A stretch of DNA of 45,537 bases, filler included, from Jimgerdemannia flammicorona (taxonomy: Eukaryota), in NCBI GenBank assembly GCA_003990765.1. It is 2 parts of 2 records of this genome, joined end to end, with 100 filler letters (N's around TTAATTAATTAA, not from the genome) between each part and the next. Parts side by side here need not be neighbours in the genome. Positions count along the whole stretch, not along the records: positions 1 to 22,720 come from RBNJ01001218.1; positions 22,821 to 45,537 come from RBNJ01001219.1. One strand, written 5' to 3'. Within the stretch, counting starts at the first letter, position 1. Each line of letters starts with the position of its first letter. The position numbers and the translations under genes were made by a program. The notes under the pieces were generated by a model. The model saw nothing but the letters and a program-made list of their open reading frames with translations, searched no databases and was not told the origin of the DNA. This document shows positions 9,755 through 41,680 of the stretch, piece by piece.

Positions 9755-10165
9755 CACTGAACTTTATTAAGTTAAAACAAACTACCAAGACCCTAACCAA
9801 AGAAAGTCAAAAAAGCAGTTAGATACAATCTATATATAGTCAAAGAAGCTATAGTTTCTAACTGAGAAGTTAAGCAAGTCTATATAGGAATCAGCATCCA
9901 AATTTCTGAAAGATATATTAGAAGGATATGCTATTACAGTAATCTAGCACTGAAAGAACTCTCAGTAGAAAGAGAAGTTATTGATGAAGATTATATAGGC
10001 AAAATCATTGTCCTCATCTGAAACCATGGTTGAATACTCTTCAAGATCTCTATTGATTTCTGTATTGCTCAGATCCTACTCAAGAAAATTGAGTCAACCC
10101 TCATGTCAAAGAAGTCTCTGAACTACTGTCTACTATCCAAGGATCCAAAGGATTTGGTTCATCAA
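9755..10165 (+). pseudogene. dut: dUTPase domain of family B
   Basis: Decayed motifs RYNL (GYDL), SNLA (SGLA), VIDEDYIGKI, IAQI and C-terminal KGFGSS. Confidence 0.85.
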
Positions 10166-10389
10166 ATAAGACTCTAGTTCAATCTACCATAAGTAAGGAA
10201 GAACAATTCTATAAGAAAATTAAAGATGGTTATGTACCAAGTGGCTAATACCCCTATAGTATTAGAATATACTCTTTTTGAATAATTGATGATTACTTCT
10301 CTTATGTCAATGAACTGGCCCAAAGAAGAACCAATAGAAGAAAAGCTCCTATAACCAAAATTACTAGCATTAGATCAAACAAACTACTT

Positions 10390-13129
10390 ATACTTCAAGC
10401 TTTTATCAATTGAGCACTTGTCAAGATCATGATAGATAGTGGTATCTCAGGCAACTTTATCAATAAAGAAATAGCCAACAGACTCAAGGTTCTGACCTCT
10501 CTGGTACAACAAACTCAAGCAGTTGCCACAGCTAATAGAATCTCACATATTATTAGCAAGAAAGTCTATAATCTACTCTTTCAAATTGGTAACTACTGAG
10601 TATATATTATACTTCAGATTATACCACTTCCTGATAATGAAATTATCCTTGGGACCTCATGGTTAAAATAAGAGAACCTTATGATTAATTGGATAAATTA
10701 TTCTCTGCTCATCAAGAAAAGACACTATAACTTCAAACTATAAGATAAAAAAGACCCACTCAGTTCTAGTAATTCTAGACCAAAGGTCACTCATATTAAT
10801 AAGCTATAACTCAAGAAGTTAGTCAAGAAATACCCTCTCTTTGCTATCTTTATCTGTCCATCAAAAAGAGAATCTGAAAACCTAGAAGAAGACTTTTTCA
10901 AAGTTAATAGCCATATTAGACTACTACTCCAGAAATTCTGAGATATATTTCCAAAGAAACTCCCAAAAAGTCTATCACCTAAATGAGCAGTAGACCATAT
11001 CAAGATCATCTCAGATACCAAGCCAGTCTTTAAGTCAATCTACTATATATCTCTAAGAGAAATCAATACACTTAAGAAAGAGATTGAAAAACTCTTAGAA
11101 TAAGGATTTATTAGATCTAATATATTACTCTATAATATACTAGTTCTTTTTGTTGTCAAGAAAGAAGAAAATCTGTAAATATATATTAATTATTGAGACC
11201 TCAATAAACAGACTATTAAGAACTATTGCCCACTATCTTGAATCAATGATATATTTGATAGACTTACCAATCCATAATTTATGAGCTCTTTTGACCTATG
11301 AAATGATTACTAACAAATTGCTATAAAAGAAGAAGACATCTACAAGACAGCCTTCTGAACTCACTATAGATATTTTAAGTTCTTAATTATACTCTTTGGC
11401 TTAACTAATGCTTCTACAACTTTTCAGACACTGATAAATACTATTCTGTACCTATACCTGGATAAATTTATTATTGTCTGTATTGATAACATCCTGGTCT
11501 TCAGCAAAATTCTGAAGAAACATCTCAAATATCTTGAACTAGTACTACTGAAACTCTGAGAAAATAGACTCTTTGCAAAACTCAGTAAATGCAAATTTTT
11601 TCTGAAGGAAATTCAATTTTTTAAATATTGTCATATCAAATAGAATCAAAGTAGACTCCAGCAAAATCTCTATAATTAAGAATTAGCCTAGACTAAAGAA
11701 GCTGAAAGACCTTCAGTCATTCTTAGGACTAGTAAACTATTACTAATAATTTATTACAAACTTTGCCAAGATCACTACTATTCTTACCTAAATAACTAAG
11801 TACAGCAAGAAAGAAGAATAGCTCTGGACCACAAAATAAGAAAAAGACTTCAACAACCTTATAAATTGGGGATCTGAACAAGATACAGTCTTTTAAGTAC
11901 TAAAAGATGTCTTGATAACCACTCTAGTACTCCAAGCAGCAAACTCTACCCTATCTTATGAAGTTACTACTGATGTCTCTGACCTAGCTCTTAGAGCAGT
12001 ACTCATGCAATAAGGACACTCTGTGGCCTATCATTCTCAAAAGTTCAATGATGCTAAAATCAAATATACAATCTATAAGAAGAAAATGTTAGCCATTATA
12101 GACACTCTGATCAAATAGCAGCCCAATCTCAAAGGAGCACACTTCACTATATTGACAGACCACAAATCATTAGTCAACATCAAGGCCCAGGCTACTCTTT
12201 CCCAAAAGCAAGCCAGATAGATGAAAGTCCTCACCAACTTTGACTACAAAATCCAGTATCACTCTAGTAAGGAAAATATTATTACTGATACAATCTCCAG
12301 ACCACTAATTGAAGAAGTTATCCAAACTCTCACCTTAGTTATCAACTCTATCATAGAACAAATTGTCACAGCATATGCTAATGATAAAGAAGCTCAAGCA
12401 CTTTGAGAAATTCTGAATAGTGATGATATTGACAAGAATACTTAGTATCATTAATACTAACTGAAGGACAATACCATCTACTATAAGAACAGATTGTATA
12501 TTTCTAACAATTGAGACCTCCAAAGGACCATTCTATTCAAATGTTATAATACTTCTATAGTTAGATATTTAGGATTTGATAAATGCTATGAAGTTATTTT
12601 TTAATACTTCAATTGGTCTCATATGGCTGATTAGCTAAAGATCTATATTACTTTCTGTGATATGTACTTACTAATGTAATAAGTTCTCAACACTAGTAAA
12701 ACCTAGTCTACTCCACCCTATTCTATCTACTAATTGAGAATAAATTTCTATGGACTTTATTGTATAACTACTCTGAACCAAGAATGAGAAAGATACAATT
12801 GTTATATTTATGGACTATCTCAGCAAACAAGCATACTTTGTGCCTACTACTACTACTGCAATAGCACCAGATATGTATAGCCATACTCTTGTTTGACAAC
12901 ATCTTTTGCTATTATGGTCTCTCTAAGATTATTATTAGTAATTAAGACCTAAAATTCACCAGTCACTTTGGAAAGCCCTCCATATACACCTTGGAATAAA
13001 ACTTATACTATTTATAGCCTTTTACTCTAAAACTGACAGCCAAACTGAAAGAATGAATCAAACTCTAGAACAAATACTAAAGAACTATATTTTCTATAGA
13101 TAAGATGATTGGTATGAATATCTTACTAT
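10390..13129 (+). pseudogene. pol: Protease, RT, RNase H and integrase 5' part of family B
   Basis: VKIMIDSGISGNFI; LFGLTNASTTFQ; VCIDNILVFS; VTTDVSDLALRAVL; ILTDHKSL; ISMDFIV; TDSQTERMNQTLEQ. Confidence 0.9.
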
Positions 13130-13533
13130 TGTAACATTTTAGTATAGTTTATTTCTTTTCCTTATCTTTCTTCAATATTCTATGATCTTCTGGTACTTTC
13201 TGAATGCTTAGAAATCCTTTCTTGGTACCGAGCATTAACTAGTACTTATTTAGTTAGTCACTGAATGTCCTGGAAACTTGTAGAACTTTATTTGTCATTA
13301 TTTGTCATCTTTGCCAAGAACTTTCCTCTTGGTATTTTCCTTTGATTTCTCAGATCCTTCCAGATCCTTCTTTCAGATCTTGTATAAATATTCCCTTTGT
13401 TCTCATGAATAAAGCCTCAGAATATTTTCTCTCAGAAATCCTTCGAAGAATACTTAAATTCTTAGTATCTCTTCGAGCTACTTAAGACCACCAGACTTAG
13501 TCACTTTCTTATTTAGAAACTAGAACTGTTACA
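13130..13533 (+). repeat. 5' LTR of element C
   Basis: TGTAAC...GTTACA with internal TATAAATA and AATAAA; ~95% identical to 18766-19169. Confidence 0.97.
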
Positions 13534-13550
13534 CTTGATAGCAGTGGTGA
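13534..13550 (+). promoter_or_regulatory. PBS, initiator tRNA-Met-like
   Basis: CTTGATAGCAG here and CTTGGTAGCAG in copy 2 (44390); TGGTAGCAG is complementary to the 3' end of many tRNA-iMet. Confidence 0.65.
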
Positions 13551-13601
13551 AGTTACACCTAGTCTTATCAAGACACCTCTCAAGATATCAGTTACAACAC
13601 T

Positions 13602-14633
13602 ATGAAGGACAACAGGTGGAACCCTTCATATAGTATCTATGGTCCAGACAATGCCTCATACAATCAGTACAATCAGCAAGAAGAAGAGGAATAGCAAAAC
13701 CCTACTCAGTCGAATGGGGCCATCAAGAGTCTTTTGTAGACTACATTAGCTCAGATTGCTCAACTTCAAGAATACATAGAAAGAAAGGAAAACAAGGCCC
13801 CTGCTCATACCTCTGCACCTCCACCAACATCAATACATCCAACAGCAGTCACTATCAAGCCTCAGAAGCCCAACACCTTTGATGGTCAAAGAGGAAGACT
13901 ATCTACCAATACCTGGCTTTTCCAATTGGAGCAATATGGAGAACTGACCAATTTGGAAGAAGCAACACTAGTCCAATTTGCCACCACACTCCTCCAAGAG
14001 AATGCTGCAATCTGGTAGCAAAATCATGTCCAGAATACCAGATTCTCTGGCTGAATCAAGACCTGGGGTGAATTCTCTGATGCTATTCAAGGCCAATTCA
14101 AACCAGTCAACAGCACCAAGGCCACACAAGACCATCTGGCAAATGTCAAACAACTCAAGTCTGTATAAGTATACAATGCACAATTCCTGTCAATTCTGCT
14201 AGAATTATCACATGTCACTGAAGACGAGAAGGTCAACAAGTACATCTGAGGTCTGAAAGGTCAAACCCGAGTTCGTGTTGAACTAGAAGAATCCAAGGAC
14301 CTAGATACAGCAATGAAAATTGCTGATAGGTTTGATGTCATCACCTATGGTCATTGCTTTGAATAGAAGAGACCACCTTTCAACAACAACAACCACAGAA
14401 GGGAGGAACCCAAAGTCAGAACTGTTGGACCTGCCCCTATAGACCTAGACACCATTGACAAGAGCAAGAAAGGCAAGCTTATACCCAAGGAAAAGGAGTG
14501 TCTCAAGAAGGCTGGAACCTGCTTCTTTTGCCATCAGCCTGGTCACATTGTAACCAAATGTCCCAAGAAAACCGCAGAATCAAAGAGGATTCTGGTCCTG
14601 TCCAAAGACACTCAAGGTCAACCAGTTGAATAA
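13602..14633 (+). pseudogene. gag: gag of element C
   Basis: KPQKPNTFDG, WLFQLEQY, capsid-like helices and intact CCHC knuckle CFFCHQPGHIVTKC at ~14520-14561. Confidence 0.9.
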
Positions 14634-15055
14634 GAAGTTGTACTCAATTTCATGCAAGTCAACCCCAAGGCCCAGATCCCCCAAGCACAGTCAGAAGGAG
14701 CCATTAGTTTGGACCTTCAAGCAGTACAACAAGTTACTATTCCAGCACATGAAAGAAGGCTCATTCCAACTGGCCTTTCAGTCGAAATCCCCAAGGAACA
14801 TTATGCAAGAATTGCACTAAGATCTGGCCTTAGTTTCAAGTACTCATTAGATGTTGGTGCTAGAGTCATTGACCCTGACTTCTGAGGTAAAATGCAAGTC
14901 CTGCTTGTTAACCACAAGAACCAACCATACACTATCAATGAAGGAGACAGAATTGTGCAACTCATTCTGAAATGAGCCACTCTACCAGTCATCAAAGAAG
15001 TCACCAAGCTGTCTCCAACTAAGTGAGATCAGAAAGACTTTGGTAGTACTGATAA
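14634..15055 (+). pseudogene. dut: dUTPase domain of element C, between gag and protease
   Basis: All five motif regions: AISLDL, IALRSGLS, VIDPDF*GKMQVLLVN, GDRIVQLI, KDFGST. Confidence 0.95.
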
Positions 15056-18000
15056 AGTTGCAAGCATAGCTAAGAACTGAGCCAATTCAATGCTCATTTC
15101 CAAAGGTCTAGTCAAGGGACAAGAACTAGATGTTCTTATAGACAGTGGAGCTGTTGGGAACTTCATCAATAAGAACCTCATTGATAAGCTCAAGATTCTC
15201 ACCAAACTAGCTGGTAAGAATGGTAGAGTTGTCACTGCAGATGGCACTATCTTACCAATTGACTCAATTGCTACTAAACTTCCCCTCAAGATCCAGAAGT
15301 ATTGGGAACATTTAGATTTCGAGGTAGCACCACTAGGAGACCATGATCTGATCCTAGGCAAACCCTGGCTTACATGGCACAACCCTCAGATTGATTGGAC
15401 CAAGAATGAAGTCACCTTGATTCAGGATGGAGCCAATATTACCATCAAGCTCAACAAGACTCAGACAAGAACCCCAATTGCTACTCTTTCAGCAATTCAG
15501 TTCAAGAAGGCCCTTAAGAAAGCTACCTGTGCCTTTGTGGCACTGATCTGACCAAAGAAAGAAGACAAGAAGCTATCAATTAGTGAAAGCATCAAGTTAC
15601 TGCTGAACAAGTACAAGGATGTCTTCCCAGACAAACTACCTGGTCTACCACCTTCAAGAGACCATGACCACGAAATCAAGTTGGTACCTGATGCAGCTAT
15701 ACCTAAGAAGAAAATGTACCACATGTCTCCACTCGAAATTGAAGCAGTCAAGAAGGAACTCAATGAACTCATCGAGTGAGGAGCCATTCAGCCAAGCAAG
15801 TCACCCTTTGGTTCCCCAGTCCTATTTGTCAAGAAAAAGGATAATACTCTGCAAATGTGTATAGACTACCATGCACTCAACAAGATCACAGTCAAGAACT
15901 ACTATCTGCTACTGCTCATAGATCAAATCTTTAATGCTCTTATGTAAGAATGCCAAGTACTTCACCAAGATTGATCTCACCTCTGGGTATCACCAAATTC
16001 GAATCAAGCCAGAAGACATACCCAAGACTGCCTTCATGACACCCTTTAGACTCTACGACTTTCTAGTCATGGCCTTTGGTCTCACCAATGTGCCAGCAAT
16101 CTTTCAAGATCTCATATAAACTGTCTTCAAGGATCAGCTCTATATCTTCATACTTGTATATATTGATGACATCCTGATCTTCAGTAGCACTGAAGAAGAA
16201 CACCTCAAGTACATCAAACAAGTCCTCAAGATCCTCTGTGAGAACAAGCTCTATGCAAAGCTCAAGAAATGTGAATTTTTCAAGAATCAAGTTGAATACC
16301 TTGGACACATTATATCAGCCAAAAGAATTCAAGTAGACCCAAGGAAAATACAAGCCATTGAACAGTGGCCTGTACCAGCAAACCTCACTGAACTCAGGTC
16401 CTTTCTTGGTCTGGCTGGATACTACCATCGATTTGTCAAGAACTTCTCTAGTATCGCAGAATCTTTGACAAATCTCCTGTGAAAGGAACCAAACTCTGAC
16501 CTCTATGTCCTCTACATCTGAGATGCTTTCTATCAACAAGCTTTTCAAGAACTCAAGAACTGCCTGACTCATGCACCTGTCCTTAGAAATATAGACCCAA
16601 ACTTGAAGTTCATAGTCACTACAGATACATCTAACTTTGCCATTGGTGCAGTCATTTCTCAAGATGATGGTCAAGGACACTGACCTATTGCCTTTGAGTC
16701 AAGAAAATTGTCCCCAGCAGAACAAAAGCTGGCTACTCATGAAAAGGAACTCCTGGCAATCATACATGTCCTCAAGACCTGGTGACACTATCTAGAAGGA
16801 GTTGAGTTCAATGTGATCACTAATTACAGATCCCTTCAGTATATCAACACTTAACCAACCCTCTCTTGCCAACAAGCCAAGTGGAGTCAACTGCTTCAGA
16901 CCTTTACCCCAAACATTATCTATAAGTCTGGCAAAACTCTAGTTGTATCAGATGCACTTTCAAGGAGACCTGATCTTACTGTAATTTTACAAGTCACCAT
17001 GGTACCTGAATTCCTCAACCAGATCAAGAGGCATATGAACAAGACTCTCTGGTTCTACAAAGGAATACCAAGGAATTCAAGGAAAAGTACACCATCAAGG
17101 ACAACCTCATGTACTATCAAGACAAAGTATATATTTCTGCCAACCCTGAACTACAGTATAAGATTCTTCATGAACACTATGACTCCTCACTAGCTGGCCA
17201 CCTTGGAACTGAGAAGACTATCAAGAATATCCAATGAGACTACTACTGGCCAAACATGCTCAAGGAAATCAAGAAGTATGTCCAAAGCTATGATCTTTGC
17301 TAAAGAAACAAGTCAAGCAATCAAGCATCTGCCAGTCTTCTACAACCCTTGTCAATTCTGACCAAGAAGTTCGAACAAGTCACAATGGACTTCATTGTGC
17401 AACTCCCATAAACCAAAACAGGCTATGATGCTATTGTTGTGTTTGTGGACTGTCTCACCAAGATTACAATTGCCAAACCAACTACAACTAATGCCACTAC
17501 CCCAGAAATTGCAAGAATCTTCTTCAAGACTGTCTTTCGCCATTATGGACTTCTCCAAGTAATTATCAATGACCATGACCCCAAGTTCACAAGCCACTTC
17601 TGGCAAGCACTCTTCAAGACCCTTGGAACCCAAATTGCTATGTTCACTGCCTTTCACCCTCAAACTGATGGACAGACCAAGCGAATGAACAGAACACTTG
17701 AACAAATGCTCAGAAACTATATATCTTATGAGCAAGATGATTGGGACCACTATCTGACCTATACTGAGTTTGCCTACAACAATGCCAACCAATCATCAAC
17801 TGGTCTTTCCCCATTTCAGCTACTTCATGGTCAAAATCCCAAGACCCCTGCAAGCCTAGTCTCATTCCAGCAATCCAGTTACACACAAGTTCCCACAGTC
17901 CAGAACCTTATCAACAAAATGGATTTCCTTCTCAAGATCACCACTATGAACCTGCAAAAGGCTCAGCAATATCAAGCTAAGTATGTAGATAAGAAGCGGC

Positions 18001-18436
18001 GAGATGTCATATACAACATTAGTGATATGGTTTTACTCAAAGCCAACAACATCAAGACTCAATCTCAAGTCAACTGCCAGTCAGCCAAATTCCAGCCTAA
18101 GTACCTTAGACCCTTCAAGATCACTGAGCAAATATCTACCTGGTCTTACCATCTCAACTTGTCAACAACTATACATATACACCCAGTATTCCATGTATCA
18201 CAACTCAAGGCCTGGAACCAGTCACCCTCATACTCTGGCCGAATTCCAACACCATCAGCACCAGTCATAGTTGAAGACCACATCAAGTATGAAGTCAAGA
18301 AAATTTTAGACAAGCGAGTCTGATACCATCACACAGAATATCTAGTCAAGTGGATGGGTTACCCTGAATATGATGCCACCTGGAAACCTACCACCAATCT
18401 CAAGAACTCCTAAGATCTCATCCAAGAGTTCAAGTA
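15056..18436 (+). pseudogene. pol: Protease-RT-RNase H-integrase-chromodomain of element C
   Basis: [61 protein letters not shown]; chromodomain YEVKKILDKR..EYLVKWMGYPEYDATW at ~18288-18436. Confidence 0.95.
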
Positions 18437-18752
18437 AAAAGGAACTCATTGACTACCCATGAGGTTCTTCCCTTGGATAGTAGATGACCTACTGTGCTAA
18501 TCAGGCACATTATGCATTGGAGCTCTCTAAGGGATACAGTATCAGAAGCAAGAGATATAGGAAAACCCTATAAATCCTGCAACCAATGAGGTTTGAACCA
18601 GTTCTCATCCGATCAAGATGATACTTTGGCCCTTACCTTATACAAGGACAGCCAATCCTTACCAATGAGTTGATATATTTAATTTGAAGTTTCTTTTAGT
18701 CTTATTGTTTATTATATATAACTTTGAGAATTCAACAAGGATGTTGATTCTT

Positions 18753-18765
18753 AAGGAGGGGGAGA
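18753..18765 (+). promoter_or_regulatory. Polypurine tract of element C
   Basis: AAGGAGGGGGAGA immediately before the 3' LTR. Confidence 0.9.
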
Positions 18766-19169
18766 TGTAACATTTTAGCATAGTTTATTTCTTTTCCTTG
18801 TCTTTCTTCAATATTCTATGACCTTCCGGTACTTTCCGAATGCTTAGAAATCCTTTCTTGGTGCTGAGCATTAACTAGTACTTATTTAGTTAGTCACTGA
18901 ATGTCCTGGAAACTTGTAGAACTTTATTTGTCATCATTTGTCATCTTTGCCAAGAACTTTCCTCTTGGCATTTTCCTTTGATTTCTCAGATCCTTCTGGA
19001 TCCTTCTTTCAGATCTTGTATAAATATCTCCTTTGTTCTCATGAATAAAGCCTCAGAATATTTTCTCTCAGAAATCCTTTGAAGAACACTTGAATTCTTA
19101 GTATCTCTTCAAGCTACTTAAGACCACCAGACTTAGTTGCTTCCTTATTTAGAAACTAGAACCATTACA
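18766..19169 (+). repeat. 3' LTR of element C
   Basis: Direct repeat of 13130-13533, followed by the ACTAT TSD. Confidence 0.97.
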
Positions 19170-19855
19170 ACTATAGTCAAGTTTATCTATAATAACAGTA
19201 AGCAAGCTTCTCTTAGAATGATCCTGTTCTTTACCAATATAGGACAAAACCTGAACACCTCTCTGATACTTATCTGAACTACTGATAAATTCTCTACTAT
19301 TGAAGCTATTGAAGAATTTCTGCTCTAAATATATAATTTAAGTCAGATTGCAATTGAGAATTTATTCTGAGCTCAAAAACAACAGTTACAGTATATCAAC
19401 CAGCACTACTGAGAAGAAACTTTTGATATTAGAGAAAAAGTTCTACTAGATATCTGAGGATACTAAGTTGACAACCTCAAGCACAGACTATCTATAAAGC
19501 TGAATAGTAAATTTATTAGACCATTTGAAGTCATTGTACAAGTCTCTCTAATCTTCTATAAATTGATACTACCAGATACTATTAAGATTTACCCAGTCTT
19601 CAATATCCAATATCTCAAGTAATATAATAAAAATGATGATGAGCTATTCCTGAATCAAACTGCAAAACTGCCTGCACCTATCATTATTAATGACCAAGAA
19701 GAATATAAAGTTGAACAAATCCTCAACAAATGTAGCCACAAGAACCATTCCAAATATCTTGTCAAATAGAAAGGTTAACTAATCTATGATGTAATATGGG
19801 AACTCAAGACCAACCTCCAGGATGTCACCAACTTAGTTCAAGAATATAATTCTTG
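19170..19855 (+). pseudogene. pol: Integrase C-terminus (GPF/Y region) and chromodomain of family B
   Basis: KLNSKFIRPFEVI, IYPVFNI, EEYKVEQILNK..KYLVK*KG..DVIWE. Confidence 0.9.
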
Positions 19856-20295: not shown

Positions 20296-20308
20296 AAGAA
20301 GGGGAGAG
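20296..20308 (+). promoter_or_regulatory. Polypurine tract of family B
   Basis: AAGAAGGGGAGAG followed by T and TGTAAG at 20310; same context as in element C. Confidence 0.85.
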
Positions 20309-20309
20309 T

Positions 20310-21589
20310 TGTAAGTGCACAACCTCTAAGCCACCAAAATCACATATTATTCCCAGAACAAATCTGGAAATCATATGTAAGATTATGAAGCTAAGTCAAA
20401 CTAAAGTTATAGTATTTATAAAGCTGAGTCAACTTGAAGTTACAGAATATAAGATTTATATAAATAAAATCTTATCAATTAAAACCAAATATATATATAC
20501 CCAGTACTCAGATACATCAAAATAGAGAACTATAACAAACTAAACAAATAATCCCAATTCTTAAATATATATACAAATATGACTACCAAGATCTATAACT
20601 GCATCCATGCTAATATTTGGAATATCATTGTCAACTGAGCCACACTCCCTCTGCTCCTCATGAATATCCATAGCCTAGTATCTCTTTACTTCATAGAAGT
20701 CTGATGAAATGTCCTGAACATACTTAGCAAGATCTACCAAATTGGACAAATCTCAAACTACTATTAGATCAGCCACCTTCTAGAAGATATGATTGAACAT
20801 TACTATGATATAGATATTATCCAGATGTCTCAATACCAGAAACTCATCATCTGCAAACACTAAGAACTTTTTTATGAGTACAGCACCTTTATTCCCTACC
20901 TCTGAGTTACTATCACTGAAATAATTGCCACTCTGTCCTATGACCAAATCAATAATATGATATAAAAACTTAATTATAAGTATATTGAATACATTCAAAC
21001 TACAGACAGAACCTTTCCACACTCTGATGACTATATCCTACAAATACCTTAAGTCAGATATACTATGAAGGATGTTTATGATATAATCTGGTTTAATAAT
21101 AATGAAGTAAAAGATAATGATCCCTCTGATACTGACATGACCTTCAGCCAAGAATCTCTGCCAACCTTGATAACTCTGCCAACCCTATTGATAAACTTAC
21201 AATAGTTCATAATCACTTATGAGACCTATTGAGAAAATAGCCACTAGTATAAATACCAACCTATATTTATCTCCAATTACTTTAACTATAATGAAGAGAT
21301 TGGAGAACACAATCTGTACCTCCAGACAACTCTTGAGATTAAACCTACAACTTCACTACCTAAGTATAAGTAATATAAAGAACAACTGCCAGCATACTAC
21401 AACTCTATAACTCATAGTACTGTCACCTATAAAAGATATGCAGACAGCAAATCTAATAAAAGTGAAGATGATATATCTCTCCTTTACTTACTAACTCCTT
21501 ACCTAGCATATGAGACAGATGATGCTATCTTATAGGATAGTAATGAAGTTCTAATATATTATTATCTTAGCAAATAGAGAAAAGTAATC

Positions 21590-21591
<2 letters not shown>
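20310..21591 (+). repeat. Start of a long 3' LTR of family B, cut by a retroposon
   Basis: Begins TGT right after the PPT; a second copy begins at the same boundary at ~34527. Confidence 0.65.

Positions 21592-21592
<1 letters not shown>
20579..21592 (+). pseudogene. Decayed ORF of unknown product (at least 337 codons) downstream of the family B PPT
   Basis: One frame from ATG (MTTKIYNCIHANIWNIIVN...) with about 14 stops. A TAG here aligns with CAA in the 34.8-35.3 kb copy, and several differences are synonymous. Confidence 0.55.
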
Positions 21593-21628
<36 letters not shown>

Positions 21629-22593: not shown

Positions 22594-22720
22594 TAGTGCT
22601 CCTAACGAGTCAATTTAATCCGGATTGGATTCGGATTGATTCGGATTGAATCCCATCCGGATCAACTCGGATGGGATTCGAATCCCATCCGGATGGATTC
22701 GAATCGGATTCGAATCGGAT
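22594..22720. mobile_element. Probable DNA transposon terminus (hAT-like) with CGGAT/ATCCG subterminal repeats
   Basis: Abrupt junction starting TAGTGCTC, then dense GATTCGGAT/ATCCGGAT motifs in both orientations with CpG intact; runs into the gap. Confidence 0.45.
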
Positions 22721-22820
22721 NNNNNNNNNNNNNNNNNNNNNNNNNNNNNNNNNNNNNNNNNNNNTTAATTAATTAANNNNNNNNNNNNNNNNNNNNNNNN
22801 NNNNNNNNNNNNNNNNNNNN
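22721..22820. other. Artificial assembly spacer (N44-TTAATTAATTAA-N44)
   Basis: Exactly 100 bp with a six-frame stop linker in the middle. Confidence 0.97.
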
Positions 22821-22980
22821 CATACCACACATCCTGCAATAGGAAGAGATCTGCCTCCAGACCCTTCAACCAGCTAAAAATGTTTCTACGCCGTTTTGCC
22901 CCCCTTAGCCCATTGACGTTCAAAGAAAAGATTCTAGTTGTACTGTTTATATTGAATAATGTTGGTAGGGATATCACAAT

Positions 22981-30050: not shown

Positions 30051-31000
30051 CATATATGAGAGCTATTTATTATATTAATAATAGAGTTCTTATATATATC
30101 AATATATTACTCAAAATCATTAAAGAAAGTAATGATTAAATTATTAGAGATATATCTATAGAATACTGGTAGTCTCATTTCTATCTTATCTAGATATCTT
30201 GATTCAGTTTGAAAGAGTTTGCATGGTAGTCGTTATTTGTCATTTAGTATAAAAGTGAGAAATTTACCTTAAATAGCCAGCTAATAAATATCAAGTTATA
30301 TGTACTAGAGTAGATATGTATTCTTAAATATATAGCAGATTTCTTTATCTTAAATACTTAATCTTCTTTAACTCTTCAGAGTTCTCAGAGTATATATAGA
30401 ATGGATAAGTTTGAAGTATATCTGTCTATAAACTTACATACTGGTTCTCTTGTCTCTTTATTTTAAAATATTTTAATATGAGATTACTTTACCTTAGATA
30501 CTAAAGATATTTATATCAATTTACTAGCTATATATTGGCTAAGTTAAGAAATTCTTTTTCTATTCTATATAATCTATATAATTGTGAGTTTTATACAAAT
30601 TGTATAACTGTGAGATCAAGTAACTACAAACTATAATTCTATATTATATTGAGAATTGAATTTATATGCTATAATCAAATATCTATTTCCTGATTACTTC
30701 TAATTTATATCAATTATCACAATATAAAAATATAAATAACTTCTTCTGACTCACTATATTAACTAAGTATTCTTCACTGAAATATTTAAAATATTGATAT
30801 TATTACTTAAGTAATTCTGAAAAATAATATAATTTCTGATATTTTATAATATAAAAATATATTGGCATTATAAATAAGAGATAGGAAATCAGTTTTGATT
30901 ACTTACAATTTAACTTTATGAGACCACTTATTTAATATTGTATTTTTCACTTTTAACTTTTCTTAAATATTGTAAGATCTTGTATAAATATTCAATGATC
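30051..31000. other. Very AT-rich, CpG-poor relic sequence, probably an old decayed repeat
   Basis: Composition only; no motif recognised. Confidence 0.4.
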
Positions 31001-31109
31001 TTGCAAATAGTTAGCTTTTAGATCCTCACTGTTATGGGTGCAAGCAAATCTATTGTTAGACAGACTTTGACCAATACCCAGCACATACAACAACAACAAT
31101 TCAACTGCT

Positions 31110-31600
31110 TACCTTCTTTGCTTCCAGCTCTTCCCGATCATCTTCCTTGCCTTCCTCCTCGGTAGGGGTTTTGCACCTGAAGGCATGCCTTGAGCCCCCA
31201 TACCAGCATCGGGTTCCCGCTGCCATCTCTACGCCAATGTCGACAACGTTCCCAATTTCGGCCCTCCCGGCTTGGGAACAAGTTCCAATCCTTAGCCCTT
31301 ATTTCCGCGGAAACAATATGAAAGAGAGGTACGGCAGATTTATGCATTACAACTATACGAATTACCTAAAAACTGATACCGGATAACCAACATATTCTGG
31401 AAATTCTTGATGCTCTAGAATAACGTTTTCGACCTTACGTGAAGGTTCGCCAGCTTCATCCAGGATCCGGAGGTATACTTTATATGTGAGTGGGGTTGAG
31501 CAGAAGAATAATGAGTGAATAGATAATGATGTGATTGAAATTTGTGCAGGAATTTCGGTGACCACCAAGTTCATACCAGTTATCGGATGCACTTTATCAT
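31110..31600 (-). other. Possible exons of an unidentified host gene or pseudogene
   Basis: Protein-like KVYLRILDEAGEPSRKVENVILEHQEFPEYVGYPVSVF and ..TPTEEEGKEDDREELEAKK, each followed by a GTAA donor-like site; CpG intact. Confidence 0.35.
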
Positions 31601-31799
31601 CTACCTCTTAAGCAGTATGGTTAGAGCCGCATTTTCCATTTGGACCGCCTTCGACTTCCGCACAACCCATCCTTTCCCTTTGGCTCCCTTGAGGAGAGGC
31701 CCCTGGTATTTAATACGAAATAGCTATACATTACGAACTATACGGGATCCAGGTTACTCAGAATCATCGATACGAGACAATCCTATAATATTAAAACCA

Positions 31800-32320
31800 C
31801 CTGAGACAAATGTACAAGTCAATCCCCTAATTTTAAAATGACCTTGTGCATTGGGGATCCGGGATTTCTGCGACTGGGATCGCATCTCGAGCCGATAGAT
31901 ATTCCTTCCGACTCGGACGAGATTGAAAGATGTTGTCCACAGCCTTAAATTTCTTCCACAATGCAGGTATTCCTTGTAATTTGGGTCATCGTTGCGCGGC
32001 TCCTTCCAAGGCCTGGACCCAGTAACCAACTCGAAAAGAATATTCCGAGAGCCCATATGCCACTGGAAAACGCTCCCCAGTTTTCAGGCTCGTCGGAAAG
32101 TATTTCCGGCTTATGTAGAGCTAAGAGCTGCCATTATAACTTGACGCAGGGTGGAGCGCAGATCCTTGGACACACGGTCCATAACAAGCATGATCCGATG
32201 ATCGTCCTCAATCGCGCTGAGGATCCTTCGCCCGGACATGAGATAGTTGCGTCCAATCTCTGCACGGAGGTCCCTTAGTTCCTTAAAATATTTTATCAAA
32301 TTTGCACTATATAATTGAGC
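31800..32320 (-). pseudogene. Ser/Thr protein kinase-like fragment
   Basis: IEDDHRIMLVMDRVSKDL (subdomain V-like) and ILFELVTGSRPWKEPRNDDPNYKEYL (IX-X-like). HRD, DFG and APE motifs not found; in-frame stops present. Confidence 0.55.
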
Positions 32321-32718
32321 TTGGATTTATAACAATAAAAAAAAAAAAAAAGAGAGGAGAGCGGAGTTTGAGCGTGTCCTGACAAATTCCATCACATATA
32401 AATTTGAGAAGTAGTGGAGAGATCGTTTGTGATACATTTTCGTCTGCTTTGAAAATGACAAGTGAGTACCATGCGATCAAAAAAATATTTAACTGAGCTT
32501 GAATTTTGGAAGAAGACAACGTTATCCGAAAACGTCGACTGTTGTTTTGCCAAATTAACCATGTAAAACGCGTTCAAATTTGCTAATAATATGTATGACC
32601 CTCAAGGTTTCTTTTTACTGATCGTCATAAGACAATAATGAGGTTTATAAGATACCAGCAGGTTTCATCAACATCTATGACCAATTTCAACCATATTTGT
32701 AATCGAATTAGATACCCT

Positions 32719-32980
32719 AATGTCCAGTGTCCAAAGTACCGTACCACCCTCCTATCACTATTTACTTCATAACAATACCTATGTCCAGTGTCCTACGCCA
32801 CCCTCCCATTCTATTTACATCATAACAATACCAATGTCCAGCATGCCACACCACCCTCCCATTCTATTTACATCATAGCAATAACAGTGTCACGTATCAC
32901 CCTCCCAATCCTATATACATTGTAACTATATCAGGATATAGTATCCGGCGCCACCTCTCCATTTCAATTTACATAATCCC
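32719..32980. repeat. ~53-bp degenerate tandem repeat x5
   Basis: Unit ATGTCCAG..CCACCCTCCCATTCTATTTACATCATAACAATACC. Confidence 0.85.
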
Positions 32981-33222
32981 AACCTTCCGCCTTCGCCACT
33001 ACCCAACCAGTTCACCTAGCGACGGCCTTTTCCCCTGCGCCACCTTCAAGAATACGAAGAAAGGAACTCGAGAAAGCATATTGTGAGAATGGTGAACGAT
33101 TTGCAAAATTCTAAACCCCCTTGCCTTCCTCCCTCGTTCCATCCGCCACCCCTAAATGCAAACTCAACAAAATAATTAAAATGCCGAAAAATTCCAACAC
33201 ACACGGCTTACTTACACATGTC

Positions 33223-33496
33223 CTTGGCCCCATGGAGGGTAGTCGATATTCAATGAAGCTGGGGAGCGTGACTTGGCTATAGCAGACACTAGGCAAACTG
33301 GTGCCATGGAACACCCCTTGTGCTTGTGCACCCCAAATATTTTAAATGTCGGGGAGGTCCGACACACCTTGTTTGCCTGCGTACACCCACGCACAATGAC
33401 GTTTCGCTCGTAGTGCTTGGCCCCATGGAGGGTAGTCGATATGCGATGAAGCTGGGGAGCGGGACTTGGCTACAGGAATACTGGGCAAACCGGTGC
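33223..33496. repeat. ~82-bp direct repeat pair, 193 bp apart
   Basis: CTTGGCCCCATGGAGGGTAGTCGATAT..ATGAAGCTGGGGAGCG.GACTTGGCTA at 33223 and 33416. Confidence 0.9.
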
Positions 33497-34526
33497 TCTT
33501 TCAAAGGGTGTATCCACTTTGCTCGACGAGGTGGTTCTTGAAGGCGTAAAGGCGGGTTTACAAGCCTTAATTATTATTTTCTTTTGCTGAAGTGGTCACG
33601 TGCCTTTTCAAAGTCACCAACACGTCATCATCGTATCAATACTGACAGAGAGGTATAGATGACGGATACATTTATAGAAGTGGGGCCTCAAACCGGAACA
33701 GTTTTCTCAGGAAGCTTGGTGGGAACGATATTTACATCTAGAGTTGAAAACTGATGCAACCTTGCAACTCCACAGACAATCTTTCAAACAATAAGAATAA
33801 TTATTTCAATGCCACAACATATTAAAAGTAGTGCCGCGGGTATTTTCCTCACAGCTATCATAAACATTCGTCGTTCTTTATTCGCAGTACAATAAGTGAC
33901 AATGCCATTTTCATTTAGATCGAACTGGGAATAGAGCGGCGACTTTTAAGGGTAACTGATAATTAGTGACGTCAGCACTAATGCAGTATTTATTTAAGCC
34001 ACAATTACTAAACATTTCCGCACGAGAAATCCCGGATAATCCAAATAGGAAATGCAGACAAAAACAAATAAATATGAAGCCCTATATCTGGAGGCATTTA
34101 TCAGTCTGAAAATCACTTTCAGTATTTCAAATAATATATAAAGGAGAAATATATCAAAAAGAATACTAAGTACTAATATGAGATATTAGTTAAATATATT
34201 ATTCATATTTTGCCTTTGAAAGGTACTTTGTTATTAAATCCACTAATTCTAGCCATATATGTAGTACCATTTTTATATATTTATATAAAAATTAAAACTA
34301 TAAATCAATTTATTATATATTATTATAATATATATGTATTTTTTTTCTTTTTTTTGGTTTCTTTATATCTATTATTCTATCTCTTTATTACTATTCTCTT
34401 TGTTAACTTTTTTATCATTCTCTACTATAATTATATAATAATTAATTATAAAAATATTTATTAAAAATATACTATTAATATTCTATTATTAATATTCTTA
34501 TATTTATTTTTATTTTTTTAATTATA

Positions 34527-35345
34527 TATATATATATAATCTCTAAGCTATTAAAATTATATAATATCTCAGAACAATCCAGAAATCATATATAAGATCA
34601 TAAAGCTAAGTTAGTTCAAAATCATGAAATACAAGATTATAAAGCTGAGTCAGTTTGAATTTAAGAAATATAAAACTTACAAAAATAGAATCTTACTAAT
34701 CAAGATTGAGGACATATATATATATTAGATATATATATATACTATATACTGAAACAGAGAATTATAATAAATAACAACCATATCTCCCAAATATATCCTC
34801 TATCATAACTACTGAAATCTATAACTATATCTGTATTAATATTTGGAATATTATTATTAACTATATTATAGTATCTCTATCTCTCAAGAATATCTAAAGT
34901 TTTGATCTCTTCTACTGATCCATAGAATCAGACAAATCTCAAGCTACTATCAAATTAGCTATCTTCTTAAAGATATAGTTAATCAATACTATAATTTAGA
35001 TATTACTAAAATATCTTAATATTAGAAAACTATTATATATAAATACTGAGAACTCTTTTATAAGAATAATATCTTTATTCTCTGCCTTTAAGTTACTATC
35101 ACCAAAATGATTATCACACTGACCTATAGCCAAATTGATAATATATATAGTATAAGAACTAAATCAGAAATATATTAAGTATGTCCAAACTACTGACAGA
35201 TCCTTTTTGCATCTAGATGACCATATTCTGCATATGCCTTAAGTTAGATATACTATAAAGAACATTTATAATATAATTTAGTTTAATAATAATAAAGCAA
35301 ATGACAATAATCTCTCTAATATAAAGATGTCCTCTAGCTATAGTA
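34527..35345 (+). repeat. Second, more decayed copy of the family B LTR start and its ORF
   Basis: Aligns to 20310-~21150 (CTCTAAGC, ATAAAGCTGAGTCA, AATATTTGGAATA, GACAAATCTCAA, GTTACTATCAC). Confidence 0.85.
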
Positions 35346-36061
35346 TATTTTAAAACTAAATCAATGTTTTAATAAATTTTATATTTTAATTATTTAAGTA
35401 AAAATACTCTATATAAATATATTTTATATTATATATTATAGTTTTATTTTAGAGATATTATAACATGCCTGGCTCAATGGAGGCAAATTACAAGGTTTGG
35501 GGTTGATGTAGTTTGGCTTGAGCCCACAGTTACTTTGTCAAAAGCAACAAAATGTTCTAAGATTCCTGAGGTCCTTGTTGGTGTTTGGTGGTATAATAGT
35601 CAAGCTGGATATCTGTAAGTGATTTTCTTATTGGGAAGATTCTCTAGGGATTGTGGTGATTTGTGTCTTTTCATCTTAGGTCAACTAGGAATGGTAGAAT
35701 TTCGTATATAGTGTGACGACCTTTATGTGTGACAGTCTGGTAATTTAGTGGTTCTCCCTCTTGGGTAGTAGTGATCTCTGCATGATGGTCTCTGTATAGC
35801 ATGATGATTTCCAAAAGTATGTAATTTCTGGCAGGATGATTTTGGTGGACTTCTTGATTTGATACAGGTTTTCCAAAAGTGGCAGGCTTCTTGAATATCA
35901 TGGATTCTTCTTACTGGGAATTATACTGGCAGCAGATACCTTAATAACTCAGGTTCACTGAGAACAGTGGATAACTTCAGATGTCACAGATTTTTCCTGA
36001 ATCAGCTTCAACTGAGAATACTACTCAGATTCTTGGCAAGTTATGTTAAAGACTGGCTTCA

Positions 36062-37254
36062 CGGCTCCTTTCTCCACTACCTTACCAGTCACAAGGTTTG
36101 GTAGGTGACCTTCCAAGTCCCCTTTCCCCTAATATTACCCTCTCTACCTCGGGTTGGTTTGCTGTGCCTGCAGAGGCATGGTGAGAGGAGAGCAATGGTG
36201 ATGAGTTGCCTCTTTATCAGTGTTGGATCAGTGCTTCCACCACTTTTTCACAGATTCTGGTGCCTTCAGCTACATCTGGAGTGTACCTGTTTTGGTGTGG
36301 TACCTTCTTCCTTTTGCTGTCACCAATAAGGAGTTGTCTCAGTATATCTCAGGCTATGTAGAGAGTCAGCCGACCTTGGGCATCAAGTACTCAGTATAGG
36401 TTACCTGCAGGTCCTCGGTGCCTGTGGTGGGGCCCTCTGGCTTTGGCGAGCTTACCGGCAAGTGCGGTTCTGGTATAGGTGACTGTTTTTCAGGTGATGT
36501 TGGAATGGGAGGGGAGATGGCCATCACAGATAGGAGGAAGGGTGATTACAGTGAACCAGTAGGGTGCCAGTCTGGGGGCAGTCATTGGGGCTGGGGCAGG
36601 TGCTGCTTCAGTGGGGCCTTTTGATTGGTGCAGTGCAGTTAGGTGGTAGGTGTCACTCTCGGCTTCTTTTGGCGATTCGTGGGGTTGGGCCCCGGTCATC
36701 AGGGGGGGTCAGGGGGCCCAAGGCTACCCATTTCAGGCATCTTGGCTGCACTCAACTGGAACCGGGAGCTGATACAGCAATGTGATCAAGGCCTGCAGGC
36801 TTGAGTAGTGGGGTATTGGGGGTCTCCTCCCACCTCACATGTAAGTTCTCTACTCACCTCGACTGGGAGAACCAGGCCCTACCCACCATATTGTGCTTTG
36901 ATGAGGGTTTTTTCTTTGCCTGTCATTCTCTTTGGGGTGGCAGGGGCTATTCTATTCAGCTTGGGCATGGCCTTGTATATACATTGGGTTCATGGGCATA
37001 CACTTTTGGTCATTGGCATATGGCTGAGTTTCCCCTGGTGGTAGGGAGAGCATAGTGTGCAGAATGAGGTGTGGGCTACTTTGCCCTGCTGCGTCTGGCA
37101 TGGTCGAGCTGCTGGACAATAGCTAGCCTAGGTTAATGGGGGGGCAGTGCTTGATGGATGGTTGGGGAGGGTTTTGGCCTATATAGTCTAGGTTCTCTTC
37201 CAATAAAAATCTGCAGGACATAGAGTCTGTAAAACAAAAAAAAAACAAAAAATC
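36062..37254 (+). mobile_element. Polyadenylated non-LTR retroposon (copy 2) with TSD
   Basis: AAAGACTGGCTTCA at 36048-36061 and 37255-37268 (single copy in the empty LTR at ~961-974), AATAAA at 37202, A-rich tail at 37231-37252. Confidence 0.92.
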
Positions 37255-38399: not shown

Positions 38400-40860
38400 A
38401 TGGTTTGTGCAGGTATATCTTGAGGTGATTTATGTGGACTAGAGTTCTCAAGACATGTCCATCCATGCTTCTTATATAGATGCTGGTTCCTCTAATATTA
38501 TATACAAAGTATAGTTCTTTCCATTTGGGCTTCAGTTTGTCAGCAAAGTTTGTTTTATTCATACTTCTCCAAACTAGTACTTGATCACCAATCTTGATCT
38601 TCTGATCCTTCTGTTTCTAGTCATAGTACTTCTTTTGTCTTTCTTGGGCTTTAGTAATCTGGACTCGGGCCTGATTATGTAACTGTTCTGTCTTCTTGAG
38701 GAGGTCCCCAAGATTCTCATGGTCAGCAGTTCTGGTTTTCTTGGCAAACATCATTTCAAATGGCTTTTGTTTGGTGGAGGCAGCAGGGGTGTTCTGAATT
38801 TTCCATAGGATCTCAGGTAAGCAGAGGTCCCAATTGGTAGCATTGACTTGGGCAAGTCCATTCTTGATGATCTGGTTCATCTTTCCATCATGCCATTGGT
38901 CTGGGGGTGGTATGATGTTGTCTGTTTGAGATGTATCTTGTGAATTCAGGCATAACTTGTGATTATGTTGTTGACAAATTCTGTGCCTTGGTCAGAGATG
39001 AGTACTTCTGGGGGTCCATATCTGAGTGTGAGTTCATGGAGAACACCTACAATAGTTAAGGTATGTGCAATTTCCATTGGGAAAGCCTCAGGCCACTTGG
39101 TCAGATGTTCTACAAATACAAGGATATATTTGTTTCTTCTTGGTGTAACTGGTAGAGGTCTAATTACATCTACTCTCTATCTTTGAAAGATGTAAGTGGG
39201 TGGGGGAATCAGTTGCAGAGGGGCTTGATAGTTCTTCTTTCCTTGGTACTTCTGGCAGGTGTCACATTACTGAATAATGTCTCAGACTTGGGTTCTGAGG
39301 TAGGGCCAATGTTGATATTATTTTTGAATCTTATCTTCTGTGCTTATCTGTCCTTAGTTGGCTTTCTGATGTTCTTGTCAGATGAGATCTTCTTGTTCCT
39401 TGATGGTCTGAGGAGCTTCCTTTAGAGTATAGTTCCTCAGAACACCCTTCTTCTGGTTCATTGGGGCTGGTGAGAAAGTACATCAACATTGTTGTGGGCT
39501 TTCTCTGCTTTGTGAATAATGGTGATTTTGTAATCCTGAAGGATAAGGATCCAGCAGGCTAGAATTCTAGTGGGTTCCTTGCAGTTGAATAACCATTTGA
39601 GGGCTACATGGTCTGTGATCAGGGTGAATCTTTTTCCAATGAGGTAATGCTTAAACAGAGGGACCACCTATATGACTGTAAGGCATTTCAGTTTGATGCT
39701 ACCATAGTTCATCTGCTGCTGATTAGTAGCTCTGCTTGCATAAGATATCATATGGTACTATTGATCAGATCCTTCTTGGGCCAGAACTGCCCCAAGGCCA
39801 TCTTTAGAAGCATCTGTATACAAGATAAATTGCTTCTATAGATTGAGGCACACAAGGATTGGTGCTCTAGTCATGCAGTTCTTGAGTTCTCTGAAGGCTT
39901 TTTCCTGTGTTTCCATCCATTTAAATTGCACTCCTTTCTTGAGAAGGATATGGATTGGAGTAGTGATTTGGGCAAAGTCTCTGATAAATCTTCTATAGTA
40001 GGATACTAGCATCAGGAATAATAGTATTTCCTTTGGGGTTTTTGGTACTGGCCAATTGTTGATCTTTATCTTCTTTGAGTCTACATGAGTTCCTTCTTTT
40101 GAAACTATAAATCCAAGAAATTCAAGTTTCTGTTTTCCAAAGTAGTATTTCTTTGCATTCAGTCTCAAGTAGTTCTTGCAGGTGAGTTTGAAGAATTTCT
40201 CTAGGTGGTACAGGTGTTCCTCAAAATTAGCTGAATAGATGTTGGAATCATCCATGTATACAATCAAGCAGTGTTGGATCAAGGGGGCATAGACTGAATT
40301 CATCATCCTCTGGAAGGTGGGGGGTGTATTGCAAAGTCCAAAGGGCATTCAGAGGTATTCAAATAGTTTTCTTAGAGCAAGGAAGGCTGTATTTTGAATG
40401 TCCTTGGGGTCCATGGGGATCTCATGGAATCCTGTGAAGAGGTCCATACTGCTGAAGTATCTGGCATCTTGTAACTAATCTAAGAGGTTGTCAATTCTGG
40501 GCAGAGAATAGGCATCCTTTTCGGTAACTGAATTGAGTTTCCTATAATCCATGCAGAGTCTCCATCCTCCTTTCTTTGGTACAATAAGTATAGGGCTGGC
40601 CCAGGGGCTGGTAGAGGGTCAGATGACCCCATTGTCTAAAAGTTCTTGAATGTGCTCCTTTTTGAATGTTTTCAAGTGATGGGGTATTCTATAGGGTTTC
40701 TATCAGATGGGTATTGCATTTTCTGTATTTATACTGTGGTGATATAATGGATTGTATGGCAGGTTGCCATAATCAGTGGTGAAGATATCTTGATATTTGT
40801 TGAGAAGTTCTACTAGTTGTTGCTGTTGTTGAGGTGTCAATTCTTCTCCAATGTTGGTGG
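38400..40860 (-). pseudogene. pol: RT-RNase H-integrase of family A
   Basis: Track ORFs 39836-40348, 39458-39667 and 38617-38880 plus connecting motifs. Confidence 0.93.
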
Positions 40861-41279
40861 AAGGCTTTACTGTCTCCTGGGTTGCAGAGGGGCCTTTCCT
40901 TTCTTCTGAGACCTTTTGCCATTTCCCAATAGGTTTAGTTCATAAATTTCTCTATGAGTTCGGTTGAGAAAAGGTACCAGATGTCCAATGATGGTTCCTT
41001 TTGGCAGAATAATGGTCTCTGAACTTTGGTTGGTGGCTTGTGAGTGTACTGGATTTATCTTGTTGGGGAATGTATGTCCCTCTATATCCAGGTGTGGGAT
41101 ATCTTCCTTGGGTTCAAAGAAAAGATTCCTGGGGTTGGGTGGTGCAAAGATTTCGAAGGTAGTTTGTTCTCCAGGCTCCAGGATAAGATTCTTATACAAT
41201 CTGACTGATTGCTGGTATACTTGCTGGGGAGTATTCCTCTTGAGGTAGTTGACTTGAAGGAGATGTACTTCCTTTCTCT

Positions 41280-41680
41280 CTAAACTTCTGAATCCCTTGG
41301 CTTGTCTTGTTCCTTCAGTTAGTTCAGAGATTCTTGCAACTGTGGGGTCTTGACCTTCATGAAGACTGCTTGGACAATCTTTTGTCCTCTAATGATTCAG
41401 TGTCATTCTGTACTGCTGTTGTAAGATAATCTTGATTTTGCCTATATATTCTGGGTCGATGATTCCTCCTTCCACAGTTATTCCTTATCTGGCAAGTCTG
41501 GACCTTGAGGTCAGTTGGATGTAAGATCCTTGGGGTGGCTGCATGGCTAATCCAGTTCTGATCAAGAAAGTTTTTCCAGGTTAAATAGATTCATCCTCCA
41601 GACTGTGAAGATCATACCCTATATCTTCTGGGTGGGCTTTGGTTAGAGGTTTGGCCCTGGGATGTAGCAGAGTATACTGG
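41280..41680 (-). pseudogene. dut: dUTPase domain of family A, between protease and RT
   Basis: LLHPRAKPLTKAHPEDIGYDL, RTGLA, SRSRLA, GGIIDPEYIGKI, KGFRS. Confidence 0.9.

Follow-up and report, generated by a model that had tools for sequence, protein, structure and literature searches.

Decayed Ty3/Gypsy retrotransposons with dUTPase domains in two polyprotein positions in Jimgerdemannia flammicorona

The window analysed here is a 45,537-nucleotide stretch of Jimgerdemannia flammicorona DNA, made of parts of two records joined end to end with 100 filler letters between them. It holds the remains of Ty3/Gypsy elements that we call A, B and C, together with second copies of A and C. Element C (13130..19169, plus strand) is a complete but dead Gypsy element of the chromovirus type, recognised from its LTRs, target duplication and Pfam domains. 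Its LTRs (13130-13533 and 18766-19169) are 94.6% identical over 404 bases in a self-blastn comparison. The element begins and ends with TG...CA, and a 5 bp target duplication, ACTAT, can be read directly on both sides. A single frame carries the gag, dUTPase, protease (PR), integrase (IN) zinc, rve, SH3 and chromo domains (Pfam), and the reverse transcriptase (RT) lies in a different frame at 15922-16977 (tblastn), giving the order CCHC-dUTPase-PR-RT-RH-IN-chromo. The chromodomain (E 4.8e-13) marks C as a chromovirus. Its dUTPase (14607..15086, plus strand) lies between the CCHC knuckle (14520-14561) and the protease (15072-15425), has five in-frame stops in 160 codons, and is 84% identical to P0167, an intact metagenome protein. 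A second family C copy, C2 (44028..45512, plus strand), comprises the LTR and the gag region as far as the knuckle, with 91% identity to C 13171-14653. It leaves the window right at the start of the dUTPase, where 45298-45507 matches residues 1-70 of P0167 (tblastn).

Element C is a nested insertion within the integrase of element B. The 5′ part of B (8101..13129, plus strand; GC 0.33), identified by Pfam and by tblastn against C, runs from a decayed gag to the integrase cut by C. It contains a knuckle remnant (9631-9690), the dUTPase (9803..10203), the protease (10351-10719), RT (11206-11619) and RH (11867-12241), all on the plus strand. Past the insertion, the 3′ part (19170..19853, plus strand; Pfam) supplies the integrase SH3 domain at 19482-19625 (SH3_Tf2-1, E 7.6e-10) and a chromodomain at 19704-19853 (Chromo, E 2.7e-06), by which B too is a chromovirus. 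The order is thus CCHC remnant-dUTPase-PR-RT-RH-IN-chromo. The main part of the B dUTPase spans 9803-10099, with the motif-5 end in a second frame (10084-10203), so the domain contains one frameshift, in addition to three stops in one piece and one in the other.

The coding part of element A (38904..44020, minus strand) was delimited by Pfam domains in three frames and by tblastn to P0162, an intact relative that it matches in a single HSP (44019-40870, 62% over 1080 residues). Reading along the minus strand, we find a CCHC knuckle (43989-43948), the protease (43320-43057), and a spacer of about 470 residues rich in Cys and His, with a Cys-rich motif at 42756-42664. The dUTPase (41260..41700) ends the first ORF, gag-PR-spacer-dUTPase, upstream of the RT frame. 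RT (40582-40103) with RH (39919-39530), and then IN (39401-38904), follow in further −1 frames. ORF1 has 18 stops in 1050 codons, and the dUTPase has three in 147 codons. A minus-strand translation begun at exactly 41680 is out of frame, a trivial matter. Pfam found no chromodomain in the three frames, and the integrase ORF of a metagenomic relative of A, locus L001, likewise ends without one. The 5′ gag part is absent beyond 44020, where C2 begins. A 3′ flank (36252..37252, minus strand) matches a plus-strand repeat at 21604-22594 (85% over 1001 bases, self-blastn) and is probably part of the LTR of A. Candidate LTR pieces from self-blastn are all that represent the LTRs of A and B; an LTR pair and target duplication were read for C. 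A truncated second family A copy, A2 (2227..5462, plus strand; self-blastn, tblastn), retains gag, protease and spacer, with 81% DNA identity to A over 3057-5444 and a match to P0162 residues 1-1097 (tblastn). It is broken off about 55 codons into the dUTPase, leaving a stub at about 5298-5462. Eight retroelement or dUTPase proteins used as tblastn queries found no match in the intervals 5463-8100, 20300-22720, 22829-30047 and 30048-36250.

The identity of the three domains rests on two profile searches. Pfam hmmscan, run on translations with stops read as X, placed all three above the 22-bit cut-off of PF00692 (dUTPase): B with E 1.3e-13 and 51.2 bits over profile positions 8-113 of 129, C with E 6.5e-28 and 97.5 bits over 2-128, and A with E 2.6e-13 and 50.3 bits over 6-81. 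Whole-element translations gave the same family membership. At the A site, PF00692 appeared in one of three minus-strand frames, and Pfam detected no families in the other two. A second search compared six frames of the whole window with a dUTPase profile built from database proteins, and recovered exactly three loci: C with a score of 184.4, B as two pieces in two frames, and A over profile positions 21-169 in one frame. An extra weak piece lay in another A frame (41423-41307, i-E 0.008). The first-pass annotation, made from motifs seen in the sequence, had assigned a dUTPase to each element; the profiles bear this out, and its coordinates differ from the profile loci by about 50 bases at most.

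Homotrimeric dUTPases share five conserved motifs, including an Asp/Tyr-containing motif 3, whose first Asp has a catalytic role, and a C-terminal GFGS motif 5. All five are kept in intact relatives of the C type (P0167, P0193) and of the A type (P0152, P0162, P0191, P0194). Among the window copies, the motifs of C are recognisable, the second half of A is partly decayed, and B is heavily decayed. None of the window dUTPases has an open reading frame for an active enzyme. Every dUTPase copy is dead, with three to five stops each, and the mutation spectrum consists almost purely of transitions with a CpA bias: all 22 differences between the C LTRs, 120 of 130 between C and C2, and 396 of 450 between A2 and A. 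The damage, which changes C to T on two strands with a CpA bias and separates the genomic copies, looks like RIP. Because all window copies are broken, function is inferred here from relatives only.

A, B and C represent distinct families, as had been proposed. All share the Gypsy order PR-RT-RH-IN (Pfam; tblastn for RT of C), and self-blastn of the window gave no DNA match between A and B or between A and C, and a single 385-base stretch at 67% between B and C. Pol identity is 33-49% between B and C and 22-38% between A and C. The two polyprotein positions also stand: the dUTPase precedes the protease in B and C, and lies between protease and RT in A. We therefore consider that the window probably represents three distinct dead Ty3/Gypsy families, each with an inherited homotrimer-type dUTPase domain, and that it is a further example of a published fungal pattern.

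In sequence, both dUTPase types resemble trimeric dUTPases of solved structure: the C type matches 3so2 (E 2.7e-36) and the A type 2okd (E 1.5e-22). Matches to homotrimeric enzymes of known structure (3so2, 2okd, 2hqu, yeast 3p48 and FIV 1f7d) span the whole domain. Unlike those enzymes, the window domain forms part of a retroelement polyprotein. The final Gly of motif 5 is missing from both types, and the A type has Gly for the second Asp of motif 3 (IDPGYTGE, versus IDPD(F/Y)RGE in the C type). The intact A and C types are 32% identical to each other, whereas many other dUTPases share 44-52% identity with the C type. Close relatives of the window dUTPases are short fragments, and relatives of the same architecture occur in many unrelated environmental sequences. 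One of ten metagenome loci (L001) is a family A element; the other nine have the dUTPase domain only, and the polyproteins P0162 and P0168 as tblastn queries matched no retroelement gene in them. A word-based search for C-like polyproteins around a dUTPase returned a single protein, P0001, which pairs a Copia-type RT with a dUTPase.

To place these domains we rely on a careful tree of 73 rows and 142 columns, in which intact relatives represent family A, the window copy of A and the B domain being left out. The B dUTPase is too decayed to place: it is 30-41% identical to everything (blastp), and in a quick tree of 155 rows it joined a random row on an end branch of 3.66. The backbone of the careful tree is poorly settled, with 26 of its 70 inner branches open, and the sister pairs named here have moderate support, not starred. 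The sister of family C is P0016, a fragment of an element in which dUTPase precedes PR (91/84); that of family A is P0202, with the same order of dUTPase and PR (88/90). In the quick tree, a 7-row clade (SH-aLRT 96) had united A and C with P0016, P0030 and P0050; the careful tree, with its better sampling, did not confirm this special kinship of the A and C domains.

Where the domains came from bears on an earlier suggestion that dUTPases had been captured or exchanged repeatedly. If capture from the host is meant as a recent event, the trees lend it no support. The A and C dUTPases are nearest to other retroelement-borne dUTPases, and P0024 (Laetiporus sulphureus), which alone among the rows is a named cellular dUTPase of a fungus, lies elsewhere in the careful tree. 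A and C thus appear to belong to lineages carried by other retroelements, and recent host capture is not supported among rows that include two named cellular eukaryotic enzymes, P0024 and P0186, and not J. flammicorona's own dUTPase. Separate captures of the A and B/C types from genes of cells or viruses, as Novikova et al. (2010; PMC2864245) hold, are plausible, at somewhat less than even chances. That account, as far as its description goes, states independent acquisition from different sources. The differing polyprotein positions of A and C, their low mutual identity and unlike motif 3, and their separation in the careful tree all point the same way. Further, forcing the 12 PR-then-dUTPase rows among the database elements into one clade against 17 other labelled rows was rejected (AU p 0.019, lnL 46.3 lower), and these rows grouped together in 0 of 200 bootstrap trees; that p value is, however, close to 0.05 and comes from a test made after the trees had been viewed. 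Against separate captures, an exclusive clade of the A and C families is not rejected (AU p 0.32), and the quick tree united them. Since both families have retroelement dUTPases as their closest relatives, the trees point to no donor. The earlier interpretation as a whole is borne out only in part.

The same unrejected clade, like the quick-tree grouping, would fit one old acquisition in a Gypsy ancestor, with the domain later relocated in the polyprotein or exchanged between co-resident elements by recombination. We regard this as possible but rather doubtful. In its favour, family A, with protease then dUTPase, not only has P0202 as its sister but adjoins a dUTPase-then-PR clade of P0195, P0189 and P0192 (82/55), and motif 3 has the YTGE form in every one of them. 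However, that form is also found in the widespread 140-residue P0206 group, and the grouping of A with C was lost with better sampling and a careful search. A bolder reading, less probable than not, sees the dUTPase as a module that moves among retroelements. In this view, the A type may derive from the lineage of before-PR elements (P0202, P0195, P0189, P0192), having changed place or recombined from one co-resident Gypsy lineage into another instead of being acquired afresh from hosts, in company with the reorganised three ORFs of family A (gag-PR-dUTPase, RT-RH and IN).

What the domain might do can be approached by analogy. Retroviral dUTPase is reported to lower the uracil and G-to-A load and to be required in non-dividing cells (PMC4531489). 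By comparison with retroviruses, the dUTPase of active relatives would travel with Gag-Pol into the particle and hydrolyse dUTP there, so that reverse transcriptase would add little uracil to cDNA. The benefit would presumably be greatest in cells with low dUTPase of their own. In family A, the domain closes the gag-protease-spacer ORF and is followed by a −1 shift into RT. The first-pass annotation went further, and read the domains as a counter-defence for which high dUTP, or restriction of cDNA by uracil excision, would have selected in this host. The general retroviral precedent (PMC4531489) speaks for this reading, which we judge improbable. Relatives of the same architecture are found in many unrelated environmental sequences, so this genome is not exceptional in having the trait. 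Nothing in the window favours uracil pressure; the copies were instead destroyed by C-to-T-type mutation, a RIP-like process acting on DNA repeats that a dUTPase is unable to counter.

Neither the variable position of the dUTPase nor the idea of its independent acquisition is new, both having been published. According to PMC2864245 (2010), several Gypsy families of one fungus carry the domain before PR, between PR and RT, or after IN, and independent acquisition of Gypsy dUTPases was already proposed there. The dUTPase-bearing Gypsy and chromovirus elements it describes include PosPlaTy3-3, -4 and -5 of Postia placenta, elements of Phanerochaete chrysosporium, and Tmt1 of Tuber. Compared by description only, the before-PR position of these Postia placenta-type elements corresponds to B and C, and the PR-RT position to A. 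The after-integrase position is absent from the window but present in the database relatives P0104 and P0149. Family A differs from the elements as described there in its three separate frames and its Cys/His spacer.

The order gag-dUTPase-PR of B and C resembles that of betaretroviruses, as had been remarked at the outset. In those viruses the order is likewise nucleocapsid knuckle-dUTPase-protease, and the enzyme is described as part of the Gag-Pro precursor (PMC4531489). The same source describes a trans-frame NC-dUTPase made by a gag/pro frameshift, whereas C has knuckle, dUTPase and protease in one frame. B and C, moreover, lack env and are chromodomain retrotransposons rather than retroviruses, so that the likeness lies in domain order only. 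The PR-RT position of A has its own parallels in three LTR lineages of bdelloid rotifers, Juno, Vesta and TelKA, where the dUTPase also lies between PR and RT; this likeness too is by description only (PMC5408684). As described there, Juno has an extra zinc knuckle beside its dUTPase. The rotifer hosts are animals, and A is distinguished from these elements by its Cys-rich motif upstream of the dUTPase and by a dUTPase that ends an ORF before a −1 shift.

These observations add three families, and their intact environmental relatives, to the known dUTPase-bearing Gypsy elements. They also show the two architectures known from the literature side by side, and nested one within another, in a single genome with RIP-like scars. 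A broader question concerns the frequent retention of a dUTPase by fungal retroelements and its possible movement from one element to another.

All three Gypsy families in the window, A, B and C, carry a recognisable dUTPase, as the first-pass annotation had proposed. Each domain matches Pfam PF00692 above its cut-off of 22 bits (E values of 2.6e-13 for A, 1.3e-13 for B and 6.5e-28 for C). A dUTPase profile made from database proteins, run over six frames of the whole window, placed these domains at 41700-41260 (minus strand) in A, 9803-10099 (plus strand) in B and 14607-15086 (plus strand) in C. The final motif of B is displaced to another frame (10084-10203), and another frame of A gives a weak profile match at 41423-41307 (i-E 0.008). 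Translation of the originally annotated stretches revealed a recognisable dUTPase in B and in C, with that of A in a neighbouring frame. Comparisons of DNA and Pol protein agree that the families are distinct. Self-blastn detected no DNA similarity between A and either B or C, and only one 385-base stretch (67%) between B and C. At the Pol protein level, B and C share 33-49% identity, and A and C share 22-38%.

The anatomy of the elements bears out the two claimed polyprotein positions, with dUTPase before protease (PR) in B and C, and after PR but before reverse transcriptase (RT) in A. C is a complete element located within the B integrase (IN). Its LTRs (13130-13533 and 18766-19169, plus strand; 94.6% identity) have TG...CA ends, and ACTAT flanks the element on both sides. 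A single frame encodes gag, a CCHC knuckle (14520-14561, plus strand), dUTPase, PR, the IN zinc domain, rve, SH3 and a chromodomain; RT lies in a separate frame, reached via two decay shifts. B comprises a knuckle remnant, dUTPase, PR, RT and RNase H (RH), with SH3 and a chromodomain past the C insertion. A, on the minus strand, runs CCHC, PR, a spacer of ~470 residues, dUTPase, RT, RH and IN, and no chromodomain was found in it. Its spacer has a Cys-rich motif at 42756-42664 (minus strand); Cys/His-rich motifs (CxxC...CxxC and others) occur in this spacer of family A, in the window and in the database protein P0162.

Self-blastn returned 13 repeat pairs in the window. Families A and C are each present a second time: A2 (2227-5462, plus strand) is truncated ~55 codons into the dUTPase, and C2 (44028-45512, plus strand) exits the window at the dUTPase start. 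Two 2.1-kb direct repeats (22829-24979 and 27898-30047; 73% identity) lie in a block of ~50% GC with strong C-over-G skew and no tblastn match to the retroelement proteins used. N runs at 22721-22764 and 22777-22820 are two short gaps bounding this block.

The window copies are all dead. Stops interrupt 3 of 147 dUTPase codons in A, 5 of 160 in C and 3 of 99 in B, which has one further stop and a frameshift; A ORF1 contains 18 stops. Transitions, present on both strands and biased towards CpA, account for nearly every difference between copies: 22 of 22 differences between the C LTRs (13 of the 22 in CpA context), 120 of 130 between C and C2 (77 of 120), 396 of 450 between A2 and A (173 of 396), and 124 of 140 between 21604-22594 and the A flank at 36252-37252 (66 of 124). 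B has a GC content of 33%. This pattern, from which we take the name, looks like repeat-induced point mutation (RIP).

Intact relatives exist among database proteins. A full HMMER search with the C dUTPase domain retrieved 23119 proteins at E <= 1e-3, including P0005, at 88% identity. Of the 70 top matches scanned with Pfam, 11 have domains of retroelement or plant-pararetrovirus type, and every arrangement is represented: PR then dUTPase (P0042, P0054, P0056, P0058, P0136), dUTPase then RT (P0048), RT with dUTPase further on (P0097), SH3-chromo then dUTPase (P0104, P0149), a viral movement protein domain then dUTPase (P0077), and RVT_3 (P0018). A motif scan of 292 stored proteins found dUTPase before PR in 7 and PR before dUTPase in 12. 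Tandem dUTPases, two or three per protein, are common in the top matches (for example P0002-P0004, nematode P0181 and P0182, Salix P0178), and P0001 joins a dUTPase to a Copia-type RT. For family C, P0167 retains every motif intact. For family A, P0152, in a cluster of 19, is 57% identical to the window spacer-plus-dUTPase, and P0162 is an uninterrupted 1343-residue gag-CCHC-PR-spacer-dUTPase ORF aligned to window A in one HSP (1080 residues, 62%). In sequence searches, A-type and C-type dUTPases both match solved trimeric dUTPases.

Family A is read in three frames (gag-PR-dUTPase, RT-RH, then IN), a layout common to window A and its metagenome relative L001 (62% alike), with the ORF1 stop at an identical place. 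The RT frame is -1, and the ORF1 overlap (window ~40925-40867, minus strand; L001 1310-1382) starts with G GGA AAT in the window and G GGA AAC in L001, a slippery-type heptamer by sequence. The IN frame is a further -1 (junction at window ~39465-39450, minus strand; L001 2770-2795), from a conserved CCCAATGAACC, and the IN ATG overlaps the TGA stop of RT-RH. L001 has a single in-frame stop within the dUTPase (849-851), where stored proteins of its cluster read through.

The annotation had further proposed repeated capture or exchange. A quick tree of 155 domains placed A, C, P0016, P0030 and P0050 in one 7-row clade (SH-aLRT 96), with B on a branch of 3.66. A careful tree with added sampling (73 rows, 142 columns; window domains of A and B omitted) grouped C with P0016 (dUTPase then PR; 91/84) and A with P0202 (dUTPase then PR; 88/90), with P0195, P0189 and P0192 adjacent, on an unresolved backbone. 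Motif 3 reads YTGE in the A group and its neighbours and (F/Y)RGE in C, and intact A and C domains share 32% identity. The last Gly of motif 5, GFGS(T/S)G, is replaced by D, N, S or E in 50 of 256 aligned database domains, among them those of families A and C, and at least 10 rows in which PR adjoins dUTPase (P0016, P0054, P0058, P0136, P0189, P0192, P0195, P0202, P0235, P0278).

A single A plus C clade was not rejected (AU p 0.32). A clade of the 12 PR-then-dUTPase rows against the 17 other labelled rows was rejected (p 0.019), and these 12 grouped together in 0 of 200 bootstrap trees. It follows from these trees that dUTPase position or domain has changed hands more than once across all retroelements; the three window families may go back to one acquisition or to several. 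Recent host capture is not indicated by the dUTPase tree, in which P0024, the sole named fungal cellular enzyme among the rows, is sister to neither the A nor the C family.

Varying dUTPase positions in fungal Gypsy families are already reported: in Postia placenta families the dUTPase sits between PR and RT or at one end of Pol (N- or C-terminus), these domains seem independently acquired, and the same paper cites earlier dUTPase elements of Phanerochaete and Tuber (PMC2864245). Three rotifer lineages carry dUTPase between PR and RT (PMC5408684), and betaretroviral dUTPase has been likened to that of fungal chromoviruses (PMC2774666). Host defence had been suggested as the driver; nothing in the window analysis ties these dUTPases to it. 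By analogy with retroviral dUTPases, we infer a uracil-limiting role, in which an element dUTPase would hold dUTP low around reverse transcription; this would limit uracil in cDNA, mattering most in non-dividing cells (PMC4531489).
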